52,531 nt of DNA from an uncultured Clostridia bacterium (GTDB lineage Bacteria > Bacillota > Clostridia > Christensenellales > UBA1242). The notes beneath the pieces were generated by a model, which was given only the letters and a program-made list of their open reading frames with translations, was not told the origin of the DNA and ran no database searches. The translations under genes and the position numbers were made by a program. The stretch is taken from assembly GCA_947054085.1 (NCBI GenBank), contig CAMRVD010000002.1, forward strand, positions 1 to 52,531, given 5' to 3'. Positions 20,605 through 36,593 of this stretch are shown piece after piece; the stretch's first letter is position 1; the number at the start of each line of letters is the position of its first letter.

Positions 20605-22128
20605 ATGAAAAAGGTTTTATTATCAATAGTAAGCGTATGTTTGTGCATGGTTTGTGTGTTTTCTTTTGTTGCGTGTAAACCAAAAGACTACGGTACAACT
20701 ACCACAGATACATCTAGGGTAACATCTAATGGGGGCTCGTCTGTTATTTATAATGGCGAATTATACTTTGTAAACGGGTCTGCCACAAACGATGGTAATC
20801 ATAACGGTGGTACAATGGGCAGTATCTATAAAGTAGCAGTAAAAGATAATGGCGAAATTGCTGATAATGCAAGTTACCAAAAAGTTGTAGATTGTTTGGT
20901 TGGCTACAAAAATGGCTCGATAACTATAATCGGTGACTTTTTGTATTATGCAAAACCTAGCACGGCTAAAAATAAAAAGGGCGAAATATTATACAATCGC
21001 ACAGTATTTGAAAGAAAGAATTTAGCTAATGGTTTAACACAAGAGATTTATACAACTGCCGAAAATTCGGAGAGCGAAGAGGTTTCTTACGCCTACTATA
21101 AACATAATGGCAGCGTTAATTTAATAGTATACGAAAAAACAGCTGCGACTTTAAAAAGTTTAAAAATGGGTAACCAAATAACAACCAGTTTTGCTTTAGA
21201 TAAAGTAACATCTGCAGTATTTAGCGACAATATGGGCGAAAGCAAAACCGGAAACATCAGTGCGGATAACTATATATTTTATACTTTAGCAGCGGAAGAA
21301 AATGCTGTGAATACTCAAACAAACAGGGTGTATCGCATTTCTGCAGATGGATCTAACAAGTTGTTATTGCAAGACGATGCACAAGTAAGTTTATTATGTG
21401 TTCGTGCAGGCAAACTGGTATTTAGTGTAAGCTTTGGTAGTGGCTCTAATAAAATAGATTATATTTATGCTTATGATGTTAACCAAAATACAACCGAGCG
21501 AGCTTTATCTGTTGTAGATAGTGTAAATGGAAAAAATCCTAGCGAAAACAGTATTAATAACCTTGTTAGTACTAGCACTTACGAGGATATTATATTTTTA
21601 GAAGAAGGTACAAATTTAAACGAACTTGCGATTTTATTTATAGATGGCAAGGTGCTTAGGTATCTTAAATATAACAAAGGAACAATCGTAAAAGATATAA
21701 AGCTATATACATTTGCTAGTACCCCAACATTGGAGTTTGTAGATACTTATACCGATAATAGCTTAAATAAATCACGTAAATTTGCAATATTTACAAATAA
21801 AGAAAGCAGTAGTTCTAGTTCTTATTTGTATAAAATAGAATTTGGTTTTGATAATCAAGACCAAGTTAACGATGCAAGTCCAGAACCTGTTCAGCTTTCG
21901 TTGTCAAAAATTAATGATGCAATCGGAAATTTAGTTCCAAAAATGATTGGCAATTATATATATGTATTTTCTACCGACGAAGATAAAAATGTCTTGCAAT
22001 ATAGAGTAAATTTTTATACTCCTAAGGATCTGGAAGAACAAAATCCGTCTGGTGGCGATGATAAACCTACCGACGAAGATTTAAAGGTTAAGGAAGGTGT
22101 GCTACTAGGTGGTGCAAACCTATCCTAA
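20605..22128 (+). CDS. lipoprotein, possibly beta-propeller (DUF5050-like)
   Basis: Signal peptide with lipobox FVAC. Recurrent ...LYF/YY... strand motifs. Family assignment is tentative. Confidence 0.6.
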   Translation: MKKVLLSIVSVCLCMVCVFSFVACKPKDYGTTTTDTSRVTSNGGSSVIYNGELYFVNGSATNDGNHNGGTMGSIYKVAVKDNGEIADNASYQKVVDCLVGYKNGSITIIGDFLYYAKPSTAKNKKGEILYNRTVFERKNLANGLTQEIYTTAENSESEEVSYAYYKHNGSVNLIVYEKTAATLKSLKMGNQITTSFALDKVTSAVFSDNMGESKTGNISADNYIFYTLAAEENAVNTQTNRVYRISADGSNKLLLQDDAQVSLLCVRAGKLVFSVSFGSGSNKIDYIYAYDVNQNTTERALSVVDSVNGKNPSENSINNLVSTSTYEDIIFLEEGTNLNELAILFIDGKVLRYLKYNKGTIVKDIKLYTFASTPTLEFVDTYTDNSLNKSRKFAIFTNKESSSSSSYLYKIEFGFDNQDQVNDASPEPVQLSLSKINDAIGNLVPKMIGNYIYVFSTDEDKNVLQYRVNFYTPKDLEEQNPSGGDDKPTDEDLKVKEGVLLGGANLS

Positions 22129-22216
22129 CAGCAGAACTCAGCGAATAACTGCGTTATTAAAAAAATCCCACACGTTGTCTTTACGTTTTAGTAAATACTC
22201 GCGTGGGATTTTTTAT
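22127..22216 (+). repeat. hairpin-repeat family 1, copy at the lipoprotein stop codon (left arm + apical hairpin + T-run)
   Basis: AACAGCAGAACTCAGCGAATAACTGCGTT aligns with the left arms at 25889, 30093 and 36470. CCCACACGTTGTCTTTACGTTTTAGTAAATACTCGCGTGGG aligns with 29175-29217. Confidence 0.65.
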
Positions 22217-22305
22217 GCAATGTGATAATGGTAATTTTGTTGTAAACAGAACATAACTTCTATAAAAATAGTATACAAGATTTGCTATGTGGGCAGTATT
22301 AAATA

Positions 22306-23013
22306 GTGAAGTTAATAGGCCTATGCATAAAACTGGTTTATATTGTACTGGCTATTGTTGGTACTATTTTTTCTACCAGAGCATTTGACGACGTTTTTTT
22401 GCGTGACTTTTATATTTATTATACAAATATTACTAATTATTTATGTTTAATTGCTATGCTTATTTGTTTTATTGTAGAGTATAAGCAATTAAGTAATATA
22501 CTAAAAAATAAAGGTGATAATTTAAATAGTAGAAAATCTGTAGTTCCCCAAAAAGATATAAAAAATAAAACATTAGATAATTTTATTTTTGTATGTGCTA
22601 TTTTAATTTTTGTAACTTTTATAGTTTACAATGTTTGGCTTGCAGACTATAGTTTAAAAAATTATTTTTTGTGCCCATACAATTTACTGTTTCATGTAAT
22701 TTTGCCTATCTGGTTTATTATTTTTGCAATTACAAAAAAAAGTAAATTTACTCCGCTTGCACCCGTGTATGCATTTGCAGGGCAAACAATTTATGTGATG
22801 ATTATATTTTTACGCTCCTTAATAATAAAAAACACTCCTGGACGAATAATTTATCCGTACTTTTTTTTAAACTTCGAAACATTGGGTTTTTGGGGTTCTG
22901 TTAAGTGGCTTTTATTTATGTTTGTGTTTTCGTGTTTTACTGGTTATATTTTGTATTTTATTAATAAACTAATCATTTATTTAAAAAATAAAAATCATAG
23001 TAAAACGGCATAA
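22306..23013 (+). CDS. polytopic integral membrane protein (hypothetical)
   Basis: 235 aa, GTG start, about six hydrophobic helices. Confidence 0.5.
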   Translation: MKLIGLCIKLVYIVLAIVGTIFSTRAFDDVFLRDFYIYYTNITNYLCLIAMLICFIVEYKQLSNILKNKGDNLNSRKSVVPQKDIKNKTLDNFIFVCAILIFVTFIVYNVWLADYSLKNYFLCPYNLLFHVILPIWFIIFAITKKSKFTPLAPVYAFAGQTIYVMIIFLRSLIIKNTPGRIIYPYFFLNFETLGFWGSVKWLLFMFVFSCFTGYILYFINKLIIYLKNKNHSKTA

Positions 23014-23041
23014 ATGAACAACTTTAATTAATAGGATTTAT

Positions 23042-23072
23042 AAAATAAAAATCCACTTAAGTTTAAGTGGAT
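23042..23072 (-). terminator. intrinsic terminator for the minus-strand lipoprotein operon
   Basis: ATCCACTTAA/TTAAGTGGAT 10-bp stem with a T-run on the minus strand. Confidence 0.7.
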
Positions 23073-23098
23073 GCGTATAAATATTTAGTTTAACTAAA

Positions 23099-23515
23099 TT
23101 ATGCCATTAATATTTGTAAAGCGTTGCCGGTAGCTAGGTAAACTACATTGTAATAAGTTCCAAATGTTGTTGTAACACCATTAGAAGAGTAGCCTTGCTG
23201 AGCAAGTTTTAAAACTTTGTTATTATCTTCTTGTTCTAAATAATTTTTAGCATTATCGGCACTTGCAAAAAAGTATATCATTATATATTCTTCAGGAGCA
23301 TCCGTTTCGCCAATCTGCAAAGTAAGAGTACCAACCATACCATTATTATCTGCAGGATAACTTTCGTTTGCAATAGTTATAAAATTTAATTCGCTATTTG
23401 TAAATTTGCTATAAGTTTCGGTTATATTTAAACTTTTGGTGGTTTTGTTACAACCAACAAGTATTACACACAAAGTAGTAATGCTAATTGCTAATATCTT
23501 TTTTAAAGTCTTCAT
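23099..23515 (-). CDS. small lipoprotein (hypothetical)
   Basis: Signal peptide with lipobox LVGC. Its start abuts the stop of the upstream gene. Confidence 0.6.
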   Translation of the reverse strand: MKTLKKILAISITTLCVILVGCNKTTKSLNITETYSKFTNSELNFITIANESYPADNNGMVGTLTLQIGETDAPEEYIMIYFFASADNAKNYLEQEDNNKVLKLAQQGYSSNGVTTTFGTYYNVVYLATGNALQILMA

Positions 23516-24082
23516 TTAATTTACCTTTGCCTTGCTTTTGTTTTTATTTTCGTCAATTACATTTTTAACTTCTTTGTATATAGCGTATGGGTCTACAATG
23601 TTAGCATATTTAAAAACACCAGCATTGTTTATTGGACTTGCCATACTGCCAAATACTATTGTACCAGTATTTTTGCCAATTAATTTGTCTAAAAGGCTTA
23701 CGTTTACAGTTACTGCACCAATCATTTCCATATCTAGGCTTTTAAAGTCTACACCAAATATTCCTTTGCGTATTACTATGCGTTTATTTGTGTAAGCGTA
23801 AAATGTGTTTTTATAATTTAATGCAAAAAATAATATTTCTAAAAATATACATATTGCAATAACGGTAATGGCAACGGTAATAGGTATCCACCAAGGCATG
23901 GTAGTTGTATTACCGGCTGTGTCTTCTACCGAACAGCTATCTGGAACAAACAAAAACAATACCCAAAACCAAAGCCAAAAACCACAAAAGAAGTAAGAAA
24001 AAAACATTTTTGCTTTATTTGGTTTGTATACCTTTATTATTTCTTCGTCTTTGTCTAAAATTGGGTTGAATAAATCCGTCAT
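23516..24082 (-). CDS. membrane protein with bacterial PH domain (YdbS/YdbT-like)
   Basis: Two TM helices followed by YAYTNKRIVIRKGIFGVDFKSLDMEMIGAVTV..., typical of bPH_2. Confidence 0.65.
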   Translation of the reverse strand: MTDLFNPILDKDEEIIKVYKPNKAKMFFSYFFCGFWLWFWVLFLFVPDSCSVEDTAGNTTTMPWWIPITVAITVIAICIFLEILFFALNYKNTFYAYTNKRIVIRKGIFGVDFKSLDMEMIGAVTVNVSLLDKLIGKNTGTIVFGSMASPINNAGVFKYANIVDPYAIYKEVKNVIDENKNKSKAKVN

Positions 24083-24174
24083 AACAATACTCCTTGTAGT
24101 TACATTTATTATGCATTTATATAATACAATATATTATGCAAATATGTAAAATATTTTAACAAAAAAGAGCAATA

Positions 24175-24840
24175 TTAACTGCTCCTTTTTTGTCGTTTTT
24201 GCTTTAAATATTTAAAGCTTTGTGCAAACTTATCTATAAGTTTTAAATTTATAATTAAGGTTAAACATATAACTAAAAATTGATACGCAGCCCCAATTAT
24301 AAATATCATTTCTATTTGTTTAACATGAAGTAGACATACATATAAACTTGCTACAATTAGCCAACCAACCAAACTTAAACTAAATGGGTCTATGCGTTTG
24401 TAAATGCACCTAATAAATATAAACACACTTAAACAATCCAAAGGTTGTATAAATAAAAGTAGTAGCCATTTATTAAAACAAGTAACACCAGAAAGCGATA
24501 ATGCTAGTATTATTATACATGCAACCGAAAACAATATTGCGTTGGCAAGCAGTAGCATTCCGTACTGAAAAAGCCTTTTGCGTTTTTGGCGTTGCTTATA
24601 ATTTTGCTGTGCAAGTTGTTCGTCTAAAGGATTATGTTTATTTACTAAATCATCTATAGTTACATTGTATAATTCTGCTAATTTTTTTAAAGTAAAAACA
24701 TTAGGAGTGGTTTCGCCATTTTCCCATTTACTTATGTTTTTATTGCTATACTTTAATTTATCGGCAAGTTCTAATTGGCTTAAACCTGCTTGTTTACGAT
24801 AATAACTAAGATTTTGTGCTACAATATCTTTTTCTTCCAT
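24175..24840 (-). CDS. XRE-family HTH regulator fused to a multi-pass membrane domain
   Basis: N-terminal HTH (LSYYRKQAGLSQLELADKLKYSNKNISKWENGETTPNVFTLKKLAELYNVTIDDL) followed by about four TM helices. Confidence 0.75.
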   Translation of the reverse strand: MEEKDIVAQNLSYYRKQAGLSQLELADKLKYSNKNISKWENGETTPNVFTLKKLAELYNVTIDDLVNKHNPLDEQLAQQNYKQRQKRKRLFQYGMLLLANAILFSVACIIILALSLSGVTCFNKWLLLLFIQPLDCLSVFIFIRCIYKRIDPFSLSLVGWLIVASLYVCLLHVKQIEMIFIIGAAYQFLVICLTLIINLKLIDKFAQSFKYLKQKRQKRSS

Positions 24841-25032
24841 GCGATCAGTTTATCACAAAATGCTTTTAAAAACAATTAAATATGTATAAATTAATTGTTA
24901 TAATGGTCGATTTTTGACAGTATTCGCTTTTAAAGCGAACAAAAAAACGTATTTGTAGAATAATTTTATTATCTTCGCTTGTAAACTACTAGCATTTTTG
25001 CATATATTATTTACATAAAAAGGAGACAAAAT

Positions 25033-25890
25033 ATGAAGATAAAAATAATAACCGACTCTTGCTGCAGTTTATCTATAGCCGAACTAAACAGATTAGGTAT
25101 AGATTATGTGCAAATGAGTATTTTAATAGACGATCAAAATTTTGATGCTTTTGATTGTCCAATAACCGATCCAGAGGAATATTATAAAAAAATAAAGACA
25201 GCCAAAAAGGTTTCTACTGGGTGTGTAAATGTACAATCTTTTACAGATATATTTGAAAAATATGCACATCAAGGTTGGGATGTTGTATATATAGGATTAA
25301 GTTCGGGATTATCTAGCACATACGACAATGCTGTTCGTGCGGCTAGCGAGGTAAATAAAACTTGTGGTAAACACATTTATGTTGCAGATAGTTTATCTGG
25401 TAGTTTTGCTATTGCAATTATGTTAGAACACGCTGTAAAAATGGCAGCAGAAGGTAAAACGGCAGAACAAATTTGTAAAGCACTAGATAAAAATGGCTTA
25501 AATACCTTGGTTTATTTTATGCCCGAAGATCTACAATTTTTAAGTAGATGCGGCAGACTTAATAAAATTTCTGCAACAGTGGGCAGTATGCTAAAACTAG
25601 CTCCTGTACTTGCTCCTAACGAAGAGGGTAAATTAAAAACTGTAAACAAATTTATAGGCAGAAAAAAAGGAATTAAAAACTTAGGTCTTATGTTTTTAGA
25701 GGGCATAGATATTTCACGCGAAGAAAAAATTTATGTAGGGCACACTGGAGCGGCTTCCGAGGCAGAAGAGATTGCGAACTTCTTAAAACAAAATACACAA
25801 AATAAGCAAATAGAAGTAGGCTACCTAGATTACACCATGGGTAGCAGTTGCGGACCTTGTACTGTGGCTCTGTTTGGCATAAAAAAGTAA
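25033..25890 (+). CDS. DegV-family fatty-acid-binding protein
   Basis: MKIKIITDSCCSL N-terminus and the overall DegV pattern, with AAAGGAGA RBS. Confidence 0.9.
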   Translation: MKIKIITDSCCSLSIAELNRLGIDYVQMSILIDDQNFDAFDCPITDPEEYYKKIKTAKKVSTGCVNVQSFTDIFEKYAHQGWDVVYIGLSSGLSSTYDNAVRAASEVNKTCGKHIYVADSLSGSFAIAIMLEHAVKMAAEGKTAEQICKALDKNGLNTLVYFMPEDLQFLSRCGRLNKISATVGSMLKLAPVLAPNEEGKLKTVNKFIGRKKGIKNLGLMFLEGIDISREEKIYVGHTGAASEAEEIANFLKQNTQNKQIEVGYLDYTMGSSCGPCTVALFGIKK

Positions 25891-25945
25891 ACGGCATAAT
25901 TTAGCACAATACTGCGTTTACTGGTGTTTTCAACACACCTATTAA
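25889..25945 (+). repeat. hairpin-repeat family 1, truncated copy (left arm only) overlapping the degV stop
   Basis: AAACGGCATAATTTAGCACAATACTGCGTTTAC aligns with 22127-22160, 30093-30120 and 36470-36495. Confidence 0.55.
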
Positions 25946-25947
25946 TT

Positions 25948-25975
25948 AAAAAAACAGCAAAATGCTGTTTTTCTT
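25948..25975. terminator. bidirectional intrinsic terminator
   Basis: AAAACAGCA/TGCTGTTTT stem with A/T runs, between convergent genes. Confidence 0.8.
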
Positions 25976-25978
25976 TTA

Positions 25979-26524
25979 TTATTCAATGCTTTTGATAAAT
26001 TTATTTACTTCTTTTATAAACTCATGTCTGCTATTGTTATTTGTTATATAATAATCGGCAATGCAAATAGGGCCGCCCTTATCTAGATTTTCTATTTCGG
26101 AAACATCGCGTTCGTTTGCTTGTTGTAGGGTAAAAGGTCTTATTGGTCTTTTTACAAGCCGATTATACCTTATATTTTTGTTTGTTACAATACTTAGAAC
26201 TATAAAGTTATCACCAAAATTTTCTTTTATAAGTTTATATTCGCTCCAGCTGTATAAACTTTCTATAACAATATTACCATTTTTAAAAAGCTCTTTAATT
26301 TTAGGTAGATATATTTTAGCATATATTCCCATGTCGCCACTAGAACGAAGTTCTTCGCGTATTTGTTTTTCGGTTTCTGGGGTACGAGGTATACCTCTTT
26401 TTTTTAATACCTCCATTGTGGCTTCGCCAAAATAAATTCTTTGGTAACCCGAATTTTCTAAAAGCTCGGTGGCCACGGTTTTACCAGAACCGCACATGCC
26501 TACAACTGCAACTATTTTGTTCAT
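25979..26524 (-). CDS. P-loop nucleotide/nucleoside kinase-like protein (dephospho-CoA-kinase-like AAA family)
   Basis: Walker A GMCGSGKT near the N-terminus, 181 aa. Exact substrate not assignable. Confidence 0.65.
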   Translation of the reverse strand: MNKIVAVVGMCGSGKTVATELLENSGYQRIYFGEATMEVLKKRGIPRTPETEKQIREELRSSGDMGIYAKIYLPKIKELFKNGNIVIESLYSWSEYKLIKENFGDNFIVLSIVTNKNIRYNRLVKRPIRPFTLQQANERDVSEIENLDKGGPICIADYYITNNNSRHEFIKEVNKFIKSIE

Positions 26525-26861
26525 ATTAAATTTTTACCCTTTTTATACTTTTATATTAAATTTAAATAAATAAAATGTCAATCATATTAACTTAAGCTTA
26601 CTTTGTTTTGTGATAATCTTTATTTGTATTTGTTTTAAAAGTTTTAAAAATATAACCTTTACGACAGCAAAAACTGCAAAAATTTTTAACATTGTTAATT
26701 ATGGCATGTAAAATTATAATTGTTAATAAGTGGGTTTTGGTCAGCAAAAATCTAACAAAAACAGCGTTTAAAATTATTAAAAATACTGACATAATGTACA
26801 ACACAAATAAAAAATCAAGCAAATTTTATAATATTTTTATTTTTTGTAAAAAATATATAAA

Positions 26862-26910
26862 AAACTAAATATGGTGTTTTTGTGGTTGACGCCTACACAA
26901 TATGTGGTAT
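26862..26910. promoter_or_regulatory. two NrdR-box-like palindromes overlapping the nrdD promoter
   Basis: AAACTAAATATGGTGT (26862-26877) and ACACAATATGTGGTAT (26895-26910) each match most positions of acaCwAtATaTwGtgt. TTGACG (26886-26891) and TATATT (26908-26913) lie around the second box. Confidence 0.6.
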
Positions 26911-26959
26911 ATTATGACCGTAAGATAAAATTATAACGCAAGGCAAAAGGAGCATTTTT

Positions 26960-29134
26960 ATGAAAATTATAAAAAGAAATGGTCAGGAAGTGATTTTTAA
27001 TAGCGATAAAATATATAATGCTATAGTTAAAGCTAATTTAAAGGTATCAGACAGAGAAAGAATTGCCGATGACCAAATTAAAGAAATTACTGACAAAGTA
27101 AGTTTGGCGTGCAAGAAGAAAAACAGAGCTGTAAGTGTAGAAGAGGTTCAGGATTTAGTAGAAAACGAACTTATGTTGGTTGGAAGTCCTTCCCTTGCTA
27201 GAGAATATATAACTTATAGATATCATAGAGCACTTGCTCGTAAATCTAATACAACAGACGAGCAGATTTTAGGGCTTATAGAGTGTAAAAACGAAGAAGT
27301 TAAGCAAGAAAATTCTAACAAAAACCCAACGGTAAGTAGTGTTCAACGAGACTATATGGCGGGCGAAATTAGCAAGGATTTAACGCGTAGGTTTTTGCTA
27401 CCAGAAGATGTTATAAAGGCTCATGACGAGGGCATTATTCATTTTCATGATACCGACTACTTTGCTCAGCATATGCATAACTGCGATCTTGTAAACCTAG
27501 AGGATATGCTTCAAAATGGCACTGTTATAAGCGGCACTATGATAGAAAAGCCTCATAAATTTTTGACTGCATGCAATATTGCAACGCAAATTATAGCACA
27601 AGTTGCATCAGCTCAGTATGGCGGGCAAAGCATAAGCTTAACTCACCTTGCTCCGTTTGTTAATGATAGTCGTAAAAAAATTCGCGAAGAAGTAGAAGCC
27701 GAATTTAAAGACGCGGGTGTACAAGTAGACGAAAAAGTCCTTACTAATATTGTAGAAAAACGCTTAAGAAAAGAAATTAAAAGTGGCGTGCAGACCATTC
27801 AGTATCAAGTGGTAACTTTAATGACAACTAACGGTCAAGCACCATTTATAACCGTGTTTATGTACCTTGGCGAGGCTAAAAACGAGCAGGAAAAAGCTGA
27901 CCTTGCAATAATTATAGAAGAAACTTTAAAACAACGCTACGAGGGCGTTAAAAACGAAGAGGGCGTATGGATAACTCCGGCCTTCCCTAAGCTTATATAT
28001 GTACTAGAAGAGCAAAACATTCATAAAGATAGCCCTTACTACTACCTTACTAAACTTGCTGCCGAATGCAGTGCAAAACGTATGGTTCCAGACTATATTT
28101 CCGAAAAGAAGATGCTAGAATACAAGGTAGATAAAAACGGCGAAGGTCATTGCTATACTTGCATGGGTTGTCGCAGTTTTTTAACACCTTATGTAGACGA
28201 AAATGGCAAGCCTAAATACTACGGCAGATTTAATCAAGGCGTGGTAACTATTAATCTTCCAGATGTTGCCCTTTCTAGTGGTGGCGACATGGATAAATTC
28301 TGGAAAATCTTTAACGAGAGATTAGATCTTTGCTACCGAGCTTTAATGTGCAGACATAATCGCTTAAAGGGTACGGTTAGTGATGTTGCACCTATCCTTT
28401 GGCAATACGGAGCACTTGCAAGGCTTAAAAAAGGCGAAACCATAGATAAACTGCTATATGGCGGATACTCTACAATATCTCTTGGTTATGCGGGGCTTTA
28501 CGAATGCGTAAAATACATGACTGGCTATTCGCATACCGACGACAAAGCCAAAGACTTTGCACTAAAGGTTATGCAGCACATGAACGACCGTTGCAAAGAG
28601 TGGAAGGAAAAAGAAAATATCGATTTTTCGCTTTATGGAACTCCGCTAGAAAGCACAACATATAAGTTTGCAAAGGCTCTTCAACGCCGCTTTGGAATTA
28701 TAGAGGGCATCAACGATAAAAGCTATATAACTAACAGTTACCATGTTCATGTGTCGGAGCCTATCGACGCCTTTACTAAACTTAAGTTCGAAAGTGAGTT
28801 TCAGCGTTTAAGCCCAGGCGGAGCAATAAGTTATGTAGAAGTACCAGACATGAAGTCTAACATAGACGCAGTTCTTAGTTTACTCAACTATATTTACGAC
28901 AACATTATGTACGCAGAAATCAATACAAAAAGCGACTTCTGCCAAGTTTGCGGCTACGACGGCGAAATCCAGATTGTCGAAGACGACGGCAAACTTGTTT
29001 GGGAATGCCCACATTGTAAAAACCGTGACCAAGCTAAAATGAATGTAGCTAGGCGTACTTGCGGCTATATTGGCACTCAGTTTTGGAATCAGGGGAGGAC
29101 TCAAGAGATACGCGACCGCGTCCTACATTTGTAG
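26960..29134 (+). CDS. nrdD: anaerobic ribonucleoside-triphosphate reductase
   Basis: ATP-cone N-terminus, C-terminal Zn-ribbon cysteines (CQVCG...CPHC) and glycyl-radical motif RRTCGYIG. Confidence 0.97.
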   Translation: MKIIKRNGQEVIFNSDKIYNAIVKANLKVSDRERIADDQIKEITDKVSLACKKKNRAVSVEEVQDLVENELMLVGSPSLAREYITYRYHRALARKSNTTDEQILGLIECKNEEVKQENSNKNPTVSSVQRDYMAGEISKDLTRRFLLPEDVIKAHDEGIIHFHDTDYFAQHMHNCDLVNLEDMLQNGTVISGTMIEKPHKFLTACNIATQIIAQVASAQYGGQSISLTHLAPFVNDSRKKIREEVEAEFKDAGVQVDEKVLTNIVEKRLRKEIKSGVQTIQYQVVTLMTTNGQAPFITVFMYLGEAKNEQEKADLAIIIEETLKQRYEGVKNEEGVWITPAFPKLIYVLEEQNIHKDSPYYYLTKLAAECSAKRMVPDYISEKKMLEYKVDKNGEGHCYTCMGCRSFLTPYVDENGKPKYYGRFNQGVVTINLPDVALSSGGDMDKFWKIFNERLDLCYRALMCRHNRLKGTVSDVAPILWQYGALARLKKGETIDKLLYGGYSTISLGYAGLYECVKYMTGYSHTDDKAKDFALKVMQHMNDRCKEWKEKENIDFSLYGTPLESTTYKFAKALQRRFGIIEGINDKSYITNSYHVHVSEPIDAFTKLKFESEFQRLSPGGAISYVEVPDMKSNIDAVLSLLNYIYDNIMYAEINTKSDFCQVCGYDGEIQIVEDDGKLVWECPHCKNRDQAKMNVARRTCGYIGTQFWNQGRTQEIRDRVLHL

Positions 29135-29380: not shown

Positions 29381-29423
29381 TTTATGGTAAGTTAATAGAT
29401 AAAATATAAAAGAGATAAATATT

Positions 29424-29544: not shown

Positions 29545-29557
29545 AAAAGGAGATAAT

Positions 29558-30125: not shown

Positions 30126-30144
30126 TAAACGCGTTCGTCCGGTC

Positions 30145-30201
30145 GTCCTCGTGCGGTATATTACATGTGCTTGTAGCACATTAATATGTAGTCGAAGGAT
30201 C
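30145..30201 (+). repeat. short repeat family 2, copy b (interrupted by a 33-nt hairpin)
   Basis: GTCCTCGTGCGG ... AGTCGAAGGATC, split by the hairpin TATATTACATGTGCTTGTAGCACATTAATATGT. Confidence 0.45.
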
Positions 30202-30309
30202 TTTGATTTGCAAGTGATAGATTATTAGTATATAGGTTTAGATCTACGAAAAACTTGGTGTAAATTTCCTTTGTTACATTTGGTAGCGTCAAACAGAAAT
30301 ATCAATTTT

Positions 30310-30342
30310 AGCCACTTTAAAATTTTTAAAGTGGCTTTTTGC
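30310..30342 (+). terminator. intrinsic terminator of the nrdG transcript
   Basis: AGCCACTTTAAAA/TTTTAAAGTGGCT stem followed by a T-run. Confidence 0.8.
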
Positions 30343-30375
30343 TTTTAATTTAAGTAAGTTTAATAAAATTGGGTA

Positions 30376-30404
30376 TTGACAAAGTTTGCGGCTAGTTTTA
30401 AACT
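30376..30404 (+). promoter_or_regulatory. promoter with leaderless geometry for GNAT-like paralog 1
   Basis: TTGACA, 17-nt spacer, TAAACT, then only 6 nt to the ATG at 30411. No Shine-Dalgarno sequence. Confidence 0.55.
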
Positions 30405-30410
30405 AAAAAT

Positions 30411-30992
30411 ATGGAAAGCATTTTTTTATCAACAGATTTTATAAGCCGAACTCAAATAATACAATATAACAAACAGCAGTATAAAATAGTGACAAGTAAA
30501 TACGACTTAATTAAATCGCATCCATTAGTAGACGACTGCGTGCTAAGTAGCATAGAGTACAAAGTTTACAATATAGCGGGCGACGAAATTACTAAGTGTA
30601 TCGTTAAGTATATAAGATCTACAGAAGAATTTATTAACTATTGTCACGACAAAGTGTACATTGCCGAAGTTCCAAATGAGTTTATAGAGTTAGCAAGCAT
30701 AAACACAAAACAAGAGCATCAAAATAAAGGCTATGCAAGTTTGCTTATAAACTATGTTATAGGCGATTGTCTAAATTTAAGTAAATGTTTAGGTGTAAAC
30801 TTAAAGATGATAATACTTAGGCAAAATAATCCTGCAACTTATCCTCTCTATGCAAAGTTTAATGCTAAGGAAAATTGTGGTAATTTTAGATTTTATTCTT
30901 ATACGCCTCTTATTATAAATAACATTCAAAAAGTGCAAAAATACAACGCAAATATTTTAAAAAGTGATTATCAATATCAAAATCAATTGTAA
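30411..30992 (+). CDS. GNAT-like acetyltransferase-fold protein, paralog 1
   Basis: 193 aa. Has a motif-A-like QNKGYASLLINYVIGD and a C-terminal YAKFNAKEN...YTPLII. Alignable over its full length with the next two ORFs. Confidence 0.6.
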   Translation: MESIFLSTDFISRTQIIQYNKQQYKIVTSKYDLIKSHPLVDDCVLSSIEYKVYNIAGDEITKCIVKYIRSTEEFINYCHDKVYIAEVPNEFIELASINTKQEHQNKGYASLLINYVIGDCLNLSKCLGVNLKMIILRQNNPATYPLYAKFNAKENCGNFRFYSYTPLIINNIQKVQKYNANILKSDYQYQNQL

Positions 30993-31002
30993 AACTTAAA
31001 AA

Positions 31003-31033
31003 TTAAGCTGCATTAACGCAGCTTTTTATTTTT
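31003..31033 (+). terminator. intrinsic terminator after paralog 1
   Basis: AGCTGC/GCAGCT stem followed by a long T-run. Confidence 0.7.
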
Positions 31034-31038
31034 GTGTA

Positions 31039-31067
31039 TTGACAAAAAAAGTACAGCGGTGTACTAT
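31039..31067 (+). promoter_or_regulatory. promoter with leaderless geometry for GNAT-like paralog 2
   Basis: TTGACA, 17-nt spacer, TACTAT, then 6 nt to the ATG at 31074. This is the same spacing as at 30376. Confidence 0.55.
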
Positions 31068-31073
31068 TTAGTT

Positions 31074-31640
31074 ATGGAATCTATTTATTTACTGGATCAA
31101 GAAGTTGTAAAAAGGCTAACTGCAATATCTTTTAATAAAATGCGTTATAAAGTTATAACAGAAGTTTGTAAATCTGAAAATAATAACAATAAAAAAATTA
31201 TTTACAGTTTATATAAAGGTACACAAAAAAAGTCAGAAGCTATGTTTATAGAATATTTCAAAAATAAAAAACTAGATAAATCTAGTTTTGAGGATTTTTT
31301 TGTTGTGCCAAATCATTTTATAAAGCTAGTTCATATTGAAACATTTAATGCTAAAGAAAGAGGTTTGGGTTATGGTAGCCTACTATTAAATTTTGCTATA
31401 GCGGATATTAATTGTTATAGTAAAAATATAGACAAAAATCTCAGTTTGCTCTTAAATAGTTTTGGCACGGACGAAGCTATTAGTTTTTATAATAGCTTTA
31501 ATGCAAAGGTAAATAACAAAAGTGCTATTATAGGGTTAGTCCCAATGATTATAGAATATCCAAAGATAAAGCAAACGCATACTTTTAAAAAGATAACCGA
31601 AAGGTATTTTTTACTTAGCGATGCACAAAAGTCGATGTAA
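31074..31640 (+). CDS. GNAT-like acetyltransferase-fold protein, paralog 2
   Basis: Starts at MESIYLL (the track TTG start at 31032 lies in the promoter). Carries RGLGYGSLLLNFAIAD and YNSFNAKVN...VPMII. Confidence 0.6.
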   Translation: MESIYLLDQEVVKRLTAISFNKMRYKVITEVCKSENNNNKKIIYSLYKGTQKKSEAMFIEYFKNKKLDKSSFEDFFVVPNHFIKLVHIETFNAKERGLGYGSLLLNFAIADINCYSKNIDKNLSLLLNSFGTDEAISFYNSFNAKVNNKSAIIGLVPMIIEYPKIKQTHTFKKITERYFLLSDAQKSM

Positions 31641-31654
31641 ATATAAGGTATAAG

Positions 31655-32266
31655 ATGAAAAATTTAATATTTTTACAAAATAATTTTGTAAGTAGAACTA
31701 GTATAATTGTATACAATAATCAGCCATATATTATCGAAACCCAAATATTGGAACAGACAAGTTTTGGCGAAGAAAAAGAGTATAAATATACTCTTTATAA
31801 CGAAGGTAAAATGGTTAGTGTTTGTTATATTGCAACAGTAGAACTATCACCCGCAACAAAAAGTGTATATAACAATGCAGGGTTTAAATATTTACCTACA
31901 AGAGCGGTAGAACTTAGAGATATAAAAAGCATTTTTGAAAAAAAAGATATAAAGACAAACAGTAACATAACTATAGACAATAGCAAAAATGGATATGCTG
32001 CAATACTATTAAATTTTGCTATAGGAGATGTGGTTAGTTATTCGCAGGCAGTTGGCAAAAACATACCAATAATTTTTGAGCGAACAAATAGCCCTGCCAC
32101 TATAGAATTTTACCAAAAGTTTAACGCTAAGGAAAATTGCAATGGCAATAATCACAAATCGTATACTCCAATGATTATAGAAGTGCCAATGCAGATAGAT
32201 ACCTACACTAGTACCATAATGTCACAAGAATATACATATCAAGATTTAAATCTGCAAAAAGAATAA
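31655..32266 (+). CDS. GNAT-like acetyltransferase-fold protein, paralog 3
   Basis: 203 aa, 14 nt after paralog 2. Carries SKNGYAAILLNFAIGD and YQKFNAKEN...YTPMII. Confidence 0.6.
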   Translation: MKNLIFLQNNFVSRTSIIVYNNQPYIIETQILEQTSFGEEKEYKYTLYNEGKMVSVCYIATVELSPATKSVYNNAGFKYLPTRAVELRDIKSIFEKKDIKTNSNITIDNSKNGYAAILLNFAIGDVVSYSQAVGKNIPIIFERTNSPATIEFYQKFNAKENCNGNNHKSYTPMIIEVPMQIDTYTSTIMSQEYTYQDLNLQKE

Positions 32267-32293
32267 TTATTATAAACTTTATTAAAATATCAT

Positions 32294-32327
32294 AAAAAAA
32301 ACGAGCAGTTAATTGCTCGTTTTTTAT
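32294..32327. terminator. bidirectional intrinsic terminator (paralog 3 / hup convergent)
   Basis: ACGAGCA/TGCTCGT stem with flanking A8 and T5 runs. Confidence 0.8.
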
Positions 32328-32328
32328 T

Positions 32329-32601
32329 TTAGTTTAAGCTATCTTTAAAGCTTTTGCCAAATTTTAGACTAGGAGCTTTGCAAGCTTCTACTTTAACTTC
32401 TTTACCAGTTTGAGGGTTTTTGCAAACTCTTGCAGGTTTATTTTTTGCTTCAAAAGTACCAAATCCAACTAACGATACTTTGTCGTTAGCTTTCATTGCA
32501 TCAGTTACTACTTCAACAAAAGCATCGTAAAAGTCGTTAGTAGCTTTTAGGGTTGCACCGCTTTTGTCCGCGACTGCTCTTAAAAATTCATTTTTGTTCA
32601 T
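32329..32601 (-). CDS. hup: DNA-binding protein HU
   Basis: 90 aa: MNKNEFLRAVA..., GFGTFE..., NPQTGKEV beta-arm. Confidence 0.95.
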   Translation of the reverse strand: MNKNEFLRAVADKSGATLKATNDFYDAFVEVVTDAMKANDKVSLVGFGTFEAKNKPARVCKNPQTGKEVKVEACKAPSLKFGKSFKDSLN

Positions 32602-32826
32602 AATGATCCTCCACAGATTTAAAGCACTAATATGCCTTGATACATAAATAATATCATAATAATTATTGCTTAGTAAACCATTTTTAAACGTTTTTTGTTA
32701 ATTTTACCATTAAAATAACGGAATTTTATTAATCAGATATTTATTTGACAAACTTTAACAAGTAATTAACAAAATCTTACTGTTGCATCATAAAGTAAAT
32801 AAAAAGAAAATTTAGTAGGAGTGAAA

Positions 32827-33465
32827 ATGAAAGATAATTCTAATTTGCCAATAATTAAGGATAAAAAATCGGTTTTTATAGAAGATGGCTGTACATTTGG
32901 TAAGAACGTAATTATATATCCAAATAACACTATCGAAAAGGGTACGGTTATAGGTGATAATGTAACATTGCTTCCTGGTAATTTTATTAGTGGAAGTCAT
33001 GTCGGTAAAGGTGCTAAAATTTTTAATTCTGTTATTGAGAACTCTAAGGTGGGCGAAGGTTGTTTAATAGGACCTTATTCGCACCTTAGACCTAAAACAA
33101 CACTTGCTAGCAATGTAAAGATAGGTAATTTTTGTGAAATAAAAAATTCTTTTATCGGCGAGAACAGCAAGGTTAGCCATTTAGCTTATGTAGGGGATAG
33201 TGTGGTTGGTAAAAACTGCAATATTGGCTGTGGTGCTATTTTTGTAAACTACAATGGTAAAAGCAAAAGCAATATCAATATAGGAGATAACTGCTTTATT
33301 GGTAGCAATGTAAATTTAATTGCACCAGTAAGTGTTGCAAACAAAAGTTACATATGTGCAGGAACTACCCTTACAGATTCTACTAAAGAGGAAGACTTTG
33401 TAATAGGTAGAGTTAAACCAACAGTTAAGCCTAATTACTCAGCTAAGTATATTAAGGAGCGATAA
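32827..33465 (+). CDS. GlmU-like left-handed beta-helix acetyltransferase domain only (no uridylyltransferase domain)
   Basis: AGGAG lies 5 nt before the ATG at 32827. Hexapeptide repeats and SHLAYVGDSVVGKNCNIGCGAIFVNYNGKSKSNINIGDNCFIGSNVNLIAPV align with the C-terminal half of GlmU. Only ~220 bp of AT-rich non-coding DNA lies upstream. Confidence 0.8.
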   Translation: MKDNSNLPIIKDKKSVFIEDGCTFGKNVIIYPNNTIEKGTVIGDNVTLLPGNFISGSHVGKGAKIFNSVIENSKVGEGCLIGPYSHLRPKTTLASNVKIGNFCEIKNSFIGENSKVSHLAYVGDSVVGKNCNIGCGAIFVNYNGKSKSNINIGDNCFIGSNVNLIAPVSVANKSYICAGTTLTDSTKEEDFVIGRVKPTVKPNYSAKYIKER

Positions 33466-34736
33466 TGAACTATTTTGGAACAGACGGAATTAGGGGCGAG
33501 GTTTTTAAAGATTTAGACTATAATTTGGCTCTTATTTGTGGTAATGCCATAGGACGGCGTGCAAATAAAATAATAATTGGTAGAGATACTCGGCTTAGCG
33601 GTAAAATTTTATCGGAAGCTTTTTGCTTAGGAGCAAATCTAGCAGGGGCTAGCGTTGTTGACATTGGTGTTGCAACTACTCCCTGTGTAAGTTATCTTAC
33701 AAAATTACATAATTTTAGCTATGGTATAGTAATTAGTGCTAGTCATAACCCACCAAAGTATAACGGAATAAAAGTATTTAATAACCTTGGTAAAAAGTTG
33801 ACGCAATCGGACGAAGAAGCCATAGAACAAGATTTTAATAACATGATAACAAACTATGCATCGTCTGCAAAAACTACAAAATCACCAAGGCTTATTAACG
33901 ATTATATAAAATTTTTATTAAATAGCAGCACAAATTTAGCGGGCATAAATGTTTGTGTGGATTGTGCAAACGGTGCAAGCAAAAATATTGCAAAAAAAGT
34001 TTTTAAAACTCTTAATGCTAATGTTTTGTACACGGGCATTGGAAGCGGTAAAAATATTAATAAAGAATGCGGTGCAACGTTTCAAGATAACATTATAAAC
34101 TTTACAAAAAAGCATAATGCAGACATAGGCTTTGCGTTTGATGGCGATGCCGACAGAATTATAATGGTTGATAGTCTTGGAAAATTGTATTCGGGGGACA
34201 ATATACTTCTTGGTTTAAGCGAACAATTTAATGCAAAAAAAGTTGTAGGAACAACTTTTTCTAACTTAGGACTTCAAAAAACATTGGAGCAAAAAAACAT
34301 AGAGTTTATTCGTGCAGATGTTGGTGACAAATGGGTGGCTTTAAAAATGGAAGAATCTAAAGCTATAATCGGTGGCGAACAATCGGGTCATATTATATTG
34401 CCCGGCTTACCAACTGGTGACGGACTATATGTTGCATTGCAAATGTGTAATTTTTATAAAAAAAATAAAAGCTTAAAAAGCTTAGAATTTAAAGAATATC
34501 CACAAGTTATAAAAAATGTAAGCGTAAAAAATAAGCAAATAATTAACAGCAAAAACTTTACAAATGCCTTAAACAAGATAACGCTTAATTTTAACGGCAG
34601 AATAATTGTTCGCCCAAGTGGTACAGAAAATAAAATACGTGTTATGGTAGAATATCTCGACAAAGTCACCTCCGAAAATACTGCGAATAAAATAGTAGAA
34701 TTAATAAAACAGGAACAATCTTTATGTGCGGAATAG
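33465..34736 (+). CDS. glmM: phosphoglucosamine mutase
   Basis: MNYFGTDGIRG N-terminus, active-site ISASHNP and Mg motif FDGDADR. The start overlaps the upstream stop (TAATG). Confidence 0.93.
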   Translation: MNYFGTDGIRGEVFKDLDYNLALICGNAIGRRANKIIIGRDTRLSGKILSEAFCLGANLAGASVVDIGVATTPCVSYLTKLHNFSYGIVISASHNPPKYNGIKVFNNLGKKLTQSDEEAIEQDFNNMITNYASSAKTTKSPRLINDYIKFLLNSSTNLAGINVCVDCANGASKNIAKKVFKTLNANVLYTGIGSGKNINKECGATFQDNIINFTKKHNADIGFAFDGDADRIIMVDSLGKLYSGDNILLGLSEQFNAKKVVGTTFSNLGLQKTLEQKNIEFIRADVGDKWVALKMEESKAIIGGEQSGHIILPGLPTGDGLYVALQMCNFYKKNKSLKSLEFKEYPQVIKNVSVKNKQIINSKNFTNALNKITLNFNGRIIVRPSGTENKIRVMVEYLDKVTSENTANKIVELIKQEQSLCAE

Positions 34737-36454
34737 TTGGGTACATCGGTTCTAAAACCGATATAAAAAATGCTTTGGAAACTTTAAAAAAATTAGAATA
34801 TCGCGGGTACGATAGTGCAGGTGTTGCTTTTGTTAAGCGTGGCAAAATACAATGCTTTAAACGTGTTGGACAAATTAATAATTTAATAGAAACCATTGGT
34901 AAAAAAAGTGCAAAAATATGTATTTGCCATACTCGGTGGGCAACTCACGGCAAAGCAACCGAAGAAAATGCACATCCAATAATGTCATACAATAATAATT
35001 TTTCAGTTGTTCATAATGGTATTATCGAAAATTATAAATATTTAAAAGCGAAAATAGGTGCAGAAAAATTTTCGACTAGTACCGACACCGAAGTAATTTG
35101 CAACCTACTGGAGTATCTAAAAGGCGATACAATCAGCCGAGTTATCGAGTGTGAAAGTTTGTTAGAAGGCAGCTATGCTTCGCTTATTATAGATAAATGC
35201 AATAAATACATTTACGCAATAAAAAATAAAAGCCCTATGTATATAGCATGCGGAAAAAAAGGTACAACTATAGCCAGCGATATCAGCTGTTTAAATGCTG
35301 AGTATTTTTATAATTTGCCCGACCATACAGTTGCAAAGATAAATAAAAAAGAAATAACATTTTATAGTAACGGAAATATTATAGATTTGCCGCTTTGTAA
35401 AAATATTCATAATTTTGAAAGCAACGACTTAGGGCAATACAAAACATATATGCAAAAAGAAATAGCCGAAACAAATAAGACAATATCTAACATTGTAGAG
35501 TTATATTCTTCGAGTAATAATTATATTAACGAAAACATTTTTAAAGGTATAAAAAATGTTATTTTGACTGGTTGTGGAACTGCTTATCATGCATGCTGCT
35601 TAGGTGCAAATTGGATACAAAAAAACTTAAAAATCCCAGCTAGTGCATATATTGCAAGCGAACTACGTTATAGCGAACCAATACTAGATGATAGTTCGCT
35701 TATGGTGTTAGTTAGTCAAAGCGGCGAAACTGCAGATACACTAGCAGCAGGCGAACTTGCTAAAGACAAGGGCTGCAGAATAATAACTATAACAAATGTT
35801 GGGTATAGTACACTTGCTAACCTTGCAGATGTATGTTTGCCTTTGTGTGCGGGGGCAGAAATTGCGGTAGCAAGCACCAAAGCATATGCTGCCATGCTGG
35901 CGGTTTTATATTTGTTATCTCATGCCACAAGCGGCTTTATAAAATCGCTACAAAATTTAAAGGAAATTTGTCAAAAGTTTAATTCAGATAATATATCTAA
36001 AGATATTGTTAAAAAAGTAATTAATAGTAAGCGTGTGTTTTTTATTGGTAGGCTAGACGACGGGGTAACTGCTAGCGAAGGTGCACTTAAACTTAAAGAA
36101 ATAGCTTACATAGATGCTTGCGGCTATTTTGCAGGCGAGTTAAAGCACGGAACAATTGCACTTATCGAAAACGATGTTGTAGTTATTGCAATAATTACTA
36201 ACCCTAACCTAAAACAAAAGACACTTAATGCAGTAGAAGAAGTAGTAAGTCGTGGTGCAGAGGTAATAATTATAACAAACGATAAAAGCATTACTGGTTA
36301 CACAACTATTTTTATAGATACCGCAATAGACGAAGAGCTTAATAGTTTACTAAGTGTTTATCCTCTACAAAAATTAGCTTGCGAGGTATCTTTAAGTTTG
36401 GGATTTAATCCAGACAAGCCGAGGAATTTGGCTAAAAGTGTTACTGTCGAATAA
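34724..36454 (+). CDS. glmS: glutamine--fructose-6-phosphate aminotransferase
   Basis: MCGIVGY N-terminal nucleophile, two SIS domains and C-terminal ...KSVTVE. Overlaps glmM by 13 nt. Confidence 0.97.
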   Translation: MCGIVGYIGSKTDIKNALETLKKLEYRGYDSAGVAFVKRGKIQCFKRVGQINNLIETIGKKSAKICICHTRWATHGKATEENAHPIMSYNNNFSVVHNGIIENYKYLKAKIGAEKFSTSTDTEVICNLLEYLKGDTISRVIECESLLEGSYASLIIDKCNKYIYAIKNKSPMYIACGKKGTTIASDISCLNAEYFYNLPDHTVAKINKKEITFYSNGNIIDLPLCKNIHNFESNDLGQYKTYMQKEIAETNKTISNIVELYSSSNNYINENIFKGIKNVILTGCGTAYHACCLGANWIQKNLKIPASAYIASELRYSEPILDDSSLMVLVSQSGETADTLAAGELAKDKGCRIITITNVGYSTLANLADVCLPLCAGAEIAVASTKAYAAMLAVLYLLSHATSGFIKSLQNLKEICQKFNSDNISKDIVKKVINSKRVFFIGRLDDGVTASEGALKLKEIAYIDACGYFAGELKHGTIALIENDVVVIAIITNPNLKQKTLNAVEEVVSRGAEVIIITNDKSITGYTTIFIDTAIDEELNSLLSVYPLQKLACEVSLSLGFNPDKPRNLAKSVTVE

Positions 36455-36469
36455 CCCCACGGCGAAGCT

Positions 36470-36593
36470 AAACGGCAATAATTAGCGAATTACTACATAA
36501 ACTTAAAAAAGGCAGACTGGTCATTTACGCTTAAGTAAAATCCTAGCCTGCTTTTTTTAGTTTACTTTGTACTTCATCTAATTATTGCCGTTT
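36470..36593 (+). repeat. hairpin-repeat family 1, full unit (124 nt) with perfect 16-nt terminal inverted repeats
   Basis: AAACGGCAATAATTAG (36470-36485) pairs with CTAATTATTGCCGTTT (36578-36593). The inner stem is flanked by A6 and T7 runs. The apex is GTCATTTACGCTTAAGTAAAATCC (36520-36543). Confidence 0.8.

Follow-up and report, generated by a model that had tools for sequence, protein, structure and literature searches.

The stretch of DNA studied here, which we call the window, comprises 52,531 nt of an uncultured Clostridia bacterium of the UBA1242 lineage (GenBank assembly GCA_947054085.1, contig CAMRVD010000002.1). It carries several copies, labelled A to E below, of what is apparently an undescribed family of dispersed, non-autonomous intergenic repeats of uncultured gut Clostridia, the lineage of the window included. 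The full-length repeat is a rod of about 120 nt, built of seven short helices with small conserved internal loops and an invariant 24-nt apex (GGUCAUUUACGCNUAAGUAAACUCC), and its 5' end abuts the stop codon of the gene that precedes it. A first-pass annotation of the window had proposed a dispersed repeat family whose left arm sits on or just after stop codons; both the family and its polar contact with stop codons are supported here and, when set against the rod, the consensus that had been read as a left arm corresponds to the CG.AAUAC loop together with the 5' strand of helices P1-P3. As to function, the reading that we prefer, with about even confidence, is that the repeat acts as an RNA hairpin in 3'-untranslated regions (3'-UTRs) and between cistrons, with copies A and E serving as terminators.

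Structure, distribution and placement of the family

An exact 19-mer scan for the apex, with one genome taken per species, gave 64 loci (designated here by the prefix L). The alignment of about 140 nt around each apex match disclosed a single long imperfect hairpin whose helices vary in sequence and remain complementary. With 46 copies, RNAalifold returned 32 base pairs, 25 of them with compensatory changes, and a covariance model built solely from loci outside the window (R1) found 103 copies in the 64 loci. When 101 distinct copies were aligned to the model, 92.8% of the pair cells were paired, as against 66.3% in shuffles and 34-49% with the partners slid; changes on both sides were present in 28 of the 32 pairs, and the covariation score was 0.564 versus 0.157, with none of 500 shuffles reaching 0.564. 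The internal loops are conserved (5' side, CGCAAUAC.UGUGUC; 3' side, CUCCUUGUCUUGCUCG), and in most copies the base of P3 carries a CGTC (gCGTCGCAA). Variability is greatest in helix P1, where all seven pairs change on both sides and 86% of the cells are paired, and the termini of the family differ by copy and by lineage, with at least five unrelated sequences (AAACGGCA..., CTCTTCA..., GCTTTGYA..., AAAACGCA... and TTCGTGAGAAAATGGGG...).

The hosts recovered by the apex scan are nearly all metagenome-assembled genomes (MAGs) of Candidatus Coproplasma, uncultured Christensenellaceae/Christensenella, Candidatus Stercoripulliclostridium, Candidatus Scatosoma and unnamed Clostridia; an assembly bearing the label 'Campylobacterota bacterium MS502-29' contributed seven of the 64 loci, and two of the 64 are clearly due to chance. 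Literature searches found no description of the hairpin family, and Rfam 15 gave no gathering-score hit in the window and, on the elements, none at E <= 1 (window 21900-36900 and six copy-rich loci). No viral contig matched the apex, and no element was found in 80 metagenome loci with NrdG relatives (54-68% identical), which do not come from close relatives of the window organism. In an exact-protein look-up, NrdG and two small open reading frames (ORFs) of the window had no record, and GlmS and GreA were recorded. Within the family, near-identical copies stand behind unrelated genes (98% identity between L053 and L057, 97% between L001 and L055); inside one MAG identities of 96-98% are possible, the median being about 65-70%. 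Tandem arrays, with periods of 123-146 nt, are local duplications, and the array at L050 also duplicates the last codons of the upstream gene.

Since the loci were picked by the apex alone, they provide a census that is unbiased for position, with genes taken from simple ORF calls. Counting only independent copies, that is the first of each array, 62 of 66 have a co-oriented gene upstream (binomial p = 2e-14), and the co-orientation proposed in the first-pass annotation is thus a very strong general tendency outside the window. Measured against co-oriented ORFs of 100 aa or more, the element starts no further than 10 nt from the stop in 36 of 61 copies and no further than 20 nt in 45 of 61, as against a single case in 53 of the mirror arrangement, in which a convergent ORF stops within 20 nt of the 3' end of the element. 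The next downstream gene is typically 26-600 nt from the element. On these grounds, stop contact is specific to the 5' end. Coproplasma copies begin 1-10 nt past the stop, with no conserved spacer, and some sites are internal to operons (ffh-rpsP in four species, after a NusG-like gene in three species, and rpmG-secE-nusG). In the lineage of the window, the stop codon is itself the first P1 triplet (TAA or TAG, then ACGGCA...) at four of the five plus-strand sites, as well as at the glmS site of L147 and the nrdD site of L150. Orthologous sites are shared after nrdD (window, L150 and L151) and after glmS (window and, directly on the stop, L147).

Comparison of orthologous loci disclosed sites that are filled in one genome and empty in another: L045 is filled and its counterpart in L022, with a 27-nt spacer, is empty; an L33-like gene is separated from the next gene by an element in L002 but overlaps it (TAATG) in the empty L038 and L035; and L005 is filled and L012 empty. 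The flanks of these pairs are much diverged, and no duplication of the target, a feature that the first-pass annotation had suggested looking for, is visible in them. The upstream proteins end alike with or without the element. NrdD ends in ...RVLHL* in the filled window and L150 and in the empty L149, GlmS ends in ...VTVE* in the filled window and L147 and in the empty L148 and L149, and the protein end is likewise unchanged in the pairs L045/L022 and L002/L038. Because of this identity the element does not create the stop, and the earlier proposal that it supplies the stop codon can be set aside.

At ffh-rpsP, four orthologous copies have P1/P2 and flanks in common, yet their inner helices come in three versions, each of them fully compensated; this therefore points to an exchange of the central ~70 nt between copies and not to slow change in place. 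Remnants of the 5' arm are found beside stops in copies B and D, in the 14-nt spacer after glmS, as TCTCTTCAT in L035 and possibly as TAAAATTTAGCAC after degV in L148. To judge from these sequences, they suggest repeated loss of the element, the ORF-proximal part being the last to go.

Proposed function and competing explanations

Like the first-pass annotation, which had listed a 3'-UTR function among its options, we infer a role at the RNA level. Since copies stand directly 3' of stop codons in the sense orientation, also inside housekeeping operons, they would be transcribed within the mRNA, and their restriction to the sense orientation, whether inside a transcription unit or at its end, speaks for the transcribed form as the one that matters. 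As RNA, the rod could act as a barrier to 3' exonucleases or as a processing site. In low-GC lineages, including that of the window, the inner hairpin with its U-tract would form an intrinsic terminator of the upstream gene, and copies A and E probably terminate the lipoprotein and glmS transcripts, as suggested by their A-run, hairpin and T-run of six or seven, the pattern of an intrinsic terminator. In low-GC Firmicutes, it is typical for a stable hairpin to follow the stop codon by no more than 20 nt, flanked by an A-run on its 5' side and a T-run on its 3' side (PMC1590033). Copies A and E have this arrangement around the inner hairpin but, unlike ordinary terminators, which are short and unrelated in sequence, the family has a conserved 24-nt apex and some 50 further paired bases around the hairpin. 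The same inner-terminator arrangement occurs in copies at L010, L018 and L032. For the Coproplasma copies inside operons (ffh-rpsP, rpmG-secE-nusG) a processing or stability hairpin is more plausible. Folding would probably be coupled to upstream translation, because P1 starts 0-10 nt past the stop and a terminating ribosome must melt it.

Several observations weigh against an RNA-level role. About 70% of the copies have no U-tract (across the family, T-runs are inner in 12 of 96 copies and terminal in 17 of 96), so that termination is not the general function; only part of the family has the terminator property, which is therefore not a defining one. A hairpin that merely stabilises the mRNA would need no specific partner, be it protein or nucleic acid, whereas the invariant 24-nt apex implies one. 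Stop contact is tight even where several hundred nucleotides of spacer follow, which selection alone does not fully explain, and the window itself contains a full antisense copy (C3). Moreover, among 3007 pair cells there are 80 G-U pairs and 67 A-C mismatches, which is unusual for a structure selected as RNA; this parity fits a hairpin acting at the DNA level, or young copies together with gene conversion, equally well.

Because of the missing G-U enrichment, the invariant apex and the stop contact despite long spacers, we keep as the main rival, although we judge it unlikely, a mobile element that moves as single-stranded DNA. The folded hairpin would be the substrate of an enzyme encoded once elsewhere in the genome, which would act in trans, recognise the apex and the internal loops, and make any RNA effects by-products. 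Candidates for such an enzyme are an HUH/Y1 transposase of the type associated with repetitive extragenic palindromic (REP) sequences, an IS110-like recombinase or an integrase, in a mode like that of REP/REPIN elements and their REP-associated tyrosine transposases (RAYTs) or that of attC sites. The almost purely Watson-Crick pairing speaks for this explanation, and conservation peaks in the apex and the asymmetric loops and is lowest at the termini, which is the pattern of a structure-specific recombination site and not that of inverted repeats bound by a transposase. The filled and empty sites without visible target duplication and the near-identical paralogues at unrelated loci also agree with it, as does the CGTC of most copies, since CGTC-tagged REP families with no known transposase exist (PMC3733652). 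On the other hand, the attC core sites are absent, no conserved 4-5-nt target lies 5' of the element, and co-orientation with the adjacent gene exceeds the gene-strand bias expected if insertion followed the replication strand. The enzyme itself did not appear. No transposase was found in the window, the all-against-all clustering of the 607 ORFs of the 64 loci (~0.47 Mb) disclosed no recurrent ORF family and no transposase candidate, and tblastn with an IS200 TnpA query gave no IS200-like hit in 1.35 Mb, although a single-copy gene is easily missed.

A bolder suggestion, which we regard as speculative and rather improbable, is that the apex is the docking site of a dedicated, lineage-specific protein that either installs the element at translation stops or reads it there. 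If this were true, the family would be a module marking the ends of reading frames. It would be either a stop-codon-directed and orientation-specific mobile element, with a targeting mechanism so far undescribed, or a bacterial counterpart of a protein-bound 3'-end stem-loop, coupling translation termination to mRNA fate in dozens of housekeeping operons.

The main idea of the first-pass annotation, a classical MITE (a miniature transposable element with inverted repeats), seems to us improbable. Here a DDE transposase would bind 16-nt terminal inverted repeats and insert at TA or TAA/TAG, selection leaving the insertions at stop codons. Copies E and C3 do have perfect terminal inverted repeats of 16-18 bp (TAAAC...GTTTA), C1 and C3 have TA on both sides, though TA is also part of the palindrome, and in the window lineage the first bases at the stop are constant. 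However, across the family it is the termini that vary between copies and lineages and the interior that is conserved, the reverse of what transposase-bound ends predict, and E, A and the L150 copy have no TA or TAA direct repeat at the right end. The variable 1-10-nt distance between stop and element in Coproplasma is a further difficulty. A preference for TAA or TAG targets does not by itself explain the placement, since many TAA/TTA triplets in the long AT-rich spacers that are not stops are avoided, while real in-frame stops are used. A full-length autonomous element was also looked for, but no transposase gene bounded by these ends was found in the window or in the 64 loci. For these reasons, variable termini and the lack of an autonomous partner in the DNA searched, we rejected membership of the classical DDE-type MITEs.

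We find it harder still to credit that the repeat is not mobile at all, but an ancient, vertically inherited cis-acting RNA or terminator module that is homogenised by gene conversion, the apparent insertions being losses elsewhere. The same junctions are indeed occupied across deep divergence (after nrdD in a relative whose GlmS is only 51% identical, and after glmS at 63%), 5'-arm remnants persist beside stops, the ffh-rpsP copies with shared outer and differing, fully compensated inner helices carry the signature of conversion between copies, and seven contigs of the same species (L145 and L153-L158, 96.2-99.3% identical to the window) have no new insertions. Against this, the empty sites are the usual compact states, such as the 27-nt spacer and the TAATG stop/start overlap, the distribution among relatives is patchy, copies 98% identical lie behind unrelated genes, and an empty site cannot gain a copy by gene conversion. 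Least credible of all is the copying of whole spacers, from stop to ribosome-binding site, between operon junctions by illegitimate recombination or template switching guided by microhomology at the stop (often AAGTAA) and at the Shine-Dalgarno sequence: it would give polar placement with no dedicated enzyme, and many upstream genes do end in ...AAG TAA, many Coproplasma copies have a 3' tail (ACCCnAATAAGGTGAAnA) that resembles a fossil ribosome-binding region, and the L050 array duplicates last codons together with the element, but the tail is absent or different in many copies (L045, window), the distance of the junctions from the stop is not fixed, microhomologies of 3-6 nt can be found everywhere and the invariant apex is left unexplained.

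Other interpretations were considered and rejected. A C-terminal extension or small ORF is incompatible with an apex that has TAA in two frames and with a distance from stop to element that has no constant phase, and a riboswitch or other regulator of the downstream gene is incompatible with downstream genes that are unrelated to one another. Copies that read TAAAA-stem...stem-TTTT raised the idea of insertion into the loops of host terminators, P1 being the host stem; this does not hold generally, since one and the same P1 (CTCTTCA/TGAAGAG) is found, with no T-run, at numerous unrelated loci.

Among known repeats, REP, BIME and REPIN sequences are similar in being short, structured, high-copy and extragenic, located mostly 3' of genes between unidirectional or convergent ORFs, and co-transcribed with them. 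Their termini can overlap or provide stop codons (PMC3733652). They are likewise vertically persistent and may be in tandem, and some CGTC-tagged families have no known transposase. In contrast, REPs are GC-rich palindromes of 20-40 nt with a GTAG/CGTC head, and a REPIN consists of two inverted REPs with a less conserved spacer, while here there is one ~120-nt rod of seven helices in which invariance is a property of the apex and not of the arms. Both orientations are known for REPs, whereas the present repeat almost always has that of the upstream gene; moreover, no RAYT gene was identified in the loci examined. ERIC/IRU, Correia (NEMIS), RUP and BOX elements resemble it as 100-150-bp sequences that form one long imperfect hairpin in transcribed spacers, operons included, and they can affect mRNA stability, processing or termination. 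Their terminal inverted repeats are conserved, a TA duplication is usual and both orientations occur, in contrast to the poorly conserved termini, undetected duplication and polar, stop-abutting placement of the present family. MIRUs are intercistronic, oriented with the operon, overlap the upstream stop and are prone to tandem arrays. Polarity, stop overlap and tandem arrays are therefore common to both, but MIRUs, which are direct repeats and not hairpins, serve translational coupling through the short ORFs that they encode, whereas the apex of the present family contains stops and its frame with respect to the upstream ORF is not constant.

The attC sites of integrons are also imperfect hairpins (57-141 nt) conserved in structure over sequence, which start at or just past the upstream stop in the same orientation and act as a folded single strand, a property that would fit the Watson-Crick-only covariation seen here. 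Nevertheless, the RYYYAAC/GTTRRRY core sites are lacking: Coproplasma copies end in CTCTTCATATA...TCTCTGAAGAG with no GTT core, and those of the window in GCTAAAC, one mismatch from R'', and GTTTCTT, with no purines after GTT. The upstream genes (nrdD, nrdG, glmS, degV, ffh, nusG, rpmG) are housekeeping genes in conserved synteny and not cassettes, there is no ORF between tandem copies and no integrase was seen nearby; with core sites absent and no cassettes upstream, membership of the attC class was rejected. So was derivation from an IS200/IS605 element, on the grounds that there is a single continuous hairpin in place of separate subterminal ones and no fixed tetra- or pentanucleotide in the 1-10 nt 5' of the element. 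The family is distinct by its multi-helix rod with an invariant apex and variable ends, its near-absolute polarity and its systematic contact with stops.

Copies in the window

The six arm strings quoted in the first-pass annotation are all present in the window. TAACAGCAGAACTCAGCGAATAAC begins at 22126, over the stop of the ORF 20605-22128, TAAACGGCATAATTTAGCACAATAC at 25888 (degV stop), TAGACGGCAACACTTAACGCAAC at 29132 (nrdD stop), TAAACGGCAGAATTTAAGTTATAC at 30092 (nrdG stop) and TAAACGGCAATAATTAGCGAATTAC at 36469, with the glmS stop (36452-36454) 14 nt upstream, and AAACGGCATAA provides the final codons and stop of the ORF 22306-23013. Pfam confirmed the names of the neighbouring genes (DegV, NrdD, NrdG-type activase, GlmS and MnmE). 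The similarity of the arms is significant against a shuffled background: the degenerate 16-mer AACRGCANAAYTYAGC has nine matches in the window with up to two mismatches, when 1.40 are expected (sd 1.26; none of 100 shuffles reached nine), and 31 with up to three, when 14.4 are expected. Four of the nine are plus-strand arms on or just past stops (22127, 25890, 30094 and 36471), and three are right arms on the opposite strand (23093, 29367 and 29528); the arm at 29134 matches only with three mismatches. The matches at 39531, which is inside gidA, and at 45695-45710 (minus strand), which is an ordinary terminator hairpin, were discarded as family members. A second conserved block, GTCATTTACGCNTAAGTAAA, is located between the arms at 29185 and 36520, and variants of it are found at 22177 and 29309.

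Two models were applied to the window, and their E-values are to be read as rough. R1 found copies E, C1 and C3 at full length and C2 and A weakly. R2, a lineage-specific profile, added a marginal hit on B and no further sites; its RNAalifold consensus missed the rod (18 pairs), and it is useful only as a sequence profile.

Copy E (36469-36593, plus strand) is the best preserved. Its P1 is a perfect 16-bp helix (AAACGGCAATAATTAG/CTAATTATTGCCGTTT), and in its inner hairpin the apex (36520-36543) lies between an A-run (36505-36510) and a T-run (36552-36558). R1 gave it 54.1 bits (E = 3e-12, 36471-36591), and it folds with a minimum free energy of -48.9 kcal/mol (z = -10.3). The 14-nt spacer CCCCACGGCGAAGC (36455-36468, plus strand) between the glmS stop and copy E resembles, in a by-eye comparison with AACGGCGAAAT of L147, a partial older 5' arm. 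Copy A (22126-22243, plus strand) is a full-length but degenerate rod whose first bases, TAA, are the stop of the ORF 20605-22128; its inner hairpin has the apex GTCTTTACGTTTTAGTAAA, a flanking A-run and a T-run of six after it (GGGATTTTTT). Its minimum free energy is -35.3 kcal/mol (z = -4.1), and it scored 9 bits with R1 (22150-22223) and 68 bits with R2, which was trained on it.

The 423-nt spacer between nrdD and nrdG holds three copies, one of them inverted. C1 (29132-29257, plus strand) is full-length and starts with the nrdD stop TAG; its apex, GTCATTTACGCATAAGTAAACTCC, lies at 29185-29208, its R1 score is 53.3 bits (E = 5e-12) and its fold has z = -4.3. C2 (29258-29385, plus strand) is a tandem second copy with the variant apex GTCACTTACGCAATTGTCAAGCTCC and a right arm (29367-29382) that matches the canonical one; it scored 10 bits with R1 (29274-29375) and 81 bits with R2, in whose training set it is included, and its fold has z = -0.8. 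C3 (29424-29545, minus strand) is full-length, runs in the opposite orientation and ends just 5' of the nrdG ribosome-binding site. Its terminal inverted repeats are perfect over 18 bp (TTAAACGGAAAAAATTAG/CTAATTTTTTCCGTTTAA), R1 gave it 30.8 bits (E = 8e-6, minus strand 29426-29543) and R2, also trained on it, 82 bits, and its fold has z = -6.7. As C3 is a minus-strand copy between the plus-strand genes nrdD and nrdG, the statement that every copy is co-oriented with the preceding gene does not hold in the window.

The remaining sites are incomplete. Copy B (25888-25922, plus strand), a 5'-arm remnant of about 35 nt (TAAACGGCATAATTTAGCACAATACTGCGTTTACT) that starts with the degV stop, is followed by an unrelated small hairpin and then by an ordinary terminator (25950-25972); the region 25886-25999 reached only 22 bits with R2 (E = 0.08). 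Copy D (30092-30126, plus strand), of about the same length (TAAACGGCAGAATTTAAGTTATACTTCGCTTTCTT), starts with the nrdG stop and was detected by neither model; its fold has z = +0.25, and 3' of it there is no family apex but an ordinary terminator at 30310-30336. Finally, a short palindromic variant with no assigned strand lies at 23003-23108, between convergent ORFs separated by an 85-nt spacer (ORF ends 23013 and 23099). Its arms, AAACGGCATAAAT and TAAATTATGCCATT, each hold the stop of the gene that they face (22306-23013, plus strand; 23099-23515, minus strand), and its central hairpin (23051-23072) has a T-run on the minus strand (fold z = -3.2). It has no family apex, and its membership is based on the arms only. 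Nevertheless, the claim that no copy stands behind minus-strand genes fails here, since the minus-strand arm 23093-23108 holds the stop of the minus-strand ORF 23099-23515.

How some of these copies vary between strains can be seen in contigs of the same species. In L145, which is 99.3% identical to the window over 11.7 kb, an unrelated sequence of 107 nt (L145:4704-4810) replaces window positions 29335-29530. These 196 nt represent most of C3 and the 3' half of C2, so that the breakpoints are inside elements, and L145 keeps only the last ~17 nt of C3. Neither the 196-nt block nor the 107-nt version has another copy in the sequence collected. Six more contigs of this species, 96.2-98.7% and 99.1% identical, have copy A unchanged. 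Strains also differ at window 14999-16399: the window, L154 and L157 carry there a 1.4-kb block with an AT-rich spacer and an ORF of 171 aa (15227-15742) that has no match in Pfam, whereas L153, L155, L156 and L158 have about 185 nt in its place.

Associated sequences and significance

Other repeats were noticed near the elements in Coproplasma and related loci. Directly 3' of the two-copy tandem array of L050, at L050:3226-3297, a local search gave a match to the Gut-1 RNA motif with 39.4 bits (gathering score 50; E = 4e-6), which corresponds to three GUGAAAU-hairpin units beside the array and not on the element. Coproplasma spacers (L021 at ~3815-3880, and 3' of the elements in L053, L057 and L062) contain a second module of two hairpins, GCTTTCCCTGAAGAACAGGGAAAGTGG(G/T)(T/C)GC...GCGA(G/A)CCGATAGAGTTTGAT, with no match in an Rfam E-value search of L021. 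At many Coproplasma loci, e.g. L017:3002-3030, L035:6130-6175 and L053:5096-5140, the element is followed by the conserved 3' tail, (A)CATACCCnAATAAGGTGAAnA, sometimes duplicated; it is this tail that resembles a fossil ribosome-binding region, and it can pair with the downstream ...TATTCTTTATTC.... A third repeat, CCCGTCATTGCGAGC...GGCAATCCC, accompanies the element downstream in L051, L053 and L057, as well as in the MS502-29 loci L028, L044, L054 and L064. Because it is common to Coproplasma MAGs and to MS502-29, it suggests that this assembly, or these contigs at any rate, is contaminated or comes from the same Clostridia clade.

The gene order around the window copies also differs from that of relatives. 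At 36784-43816, the window has the origin-proximal genes mnmE, a double-GNAT ORF (357 aa) and gidA on the plus strand, followed on the minus strand by ORFs of the size of Jag, YidC, YidD and RnpA, names based on size and on synteny with relatives. In L148-L152 the segment mnmE-GNAT-gidA is inverted relative to glmS, and the GNAT gene has only 168-178 aa. Two adjacent paralogous ORFs of 202 and 203 aa (31032-32266), with no Pfam match, have a 51-nt stretch that is 75% identical (repeat D8), and L147 has a single ~204-aa ORF in their place.

The contigs L145, L146 and L147 end in the glmS-proximal element, and L148 has a 100-N gap (6380-6479) exactly in the nrdD-nrdG spacer; evidently, the repeat breaks short-read assemblies of this lineage. 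The family thus accounts for contig breaks and masked gaps in metagenome assemblies (the ends of L145 and L147, the N-run of L148), and the covariance model can be used to annotate it. We consider it a well-supported new structured element of gut Clostridia that are common yet uncultured and whose non-coding DNA has hardly been explored. Its strict polarity, its contact with stops even in ribosomal-protein and secretion operons, and its invariant apex with free termini set it apart from classical MITEs and REPs, and make it a tractable case in which to ask how small repeats choose the ends of genes and whether they tune the expression of operons.

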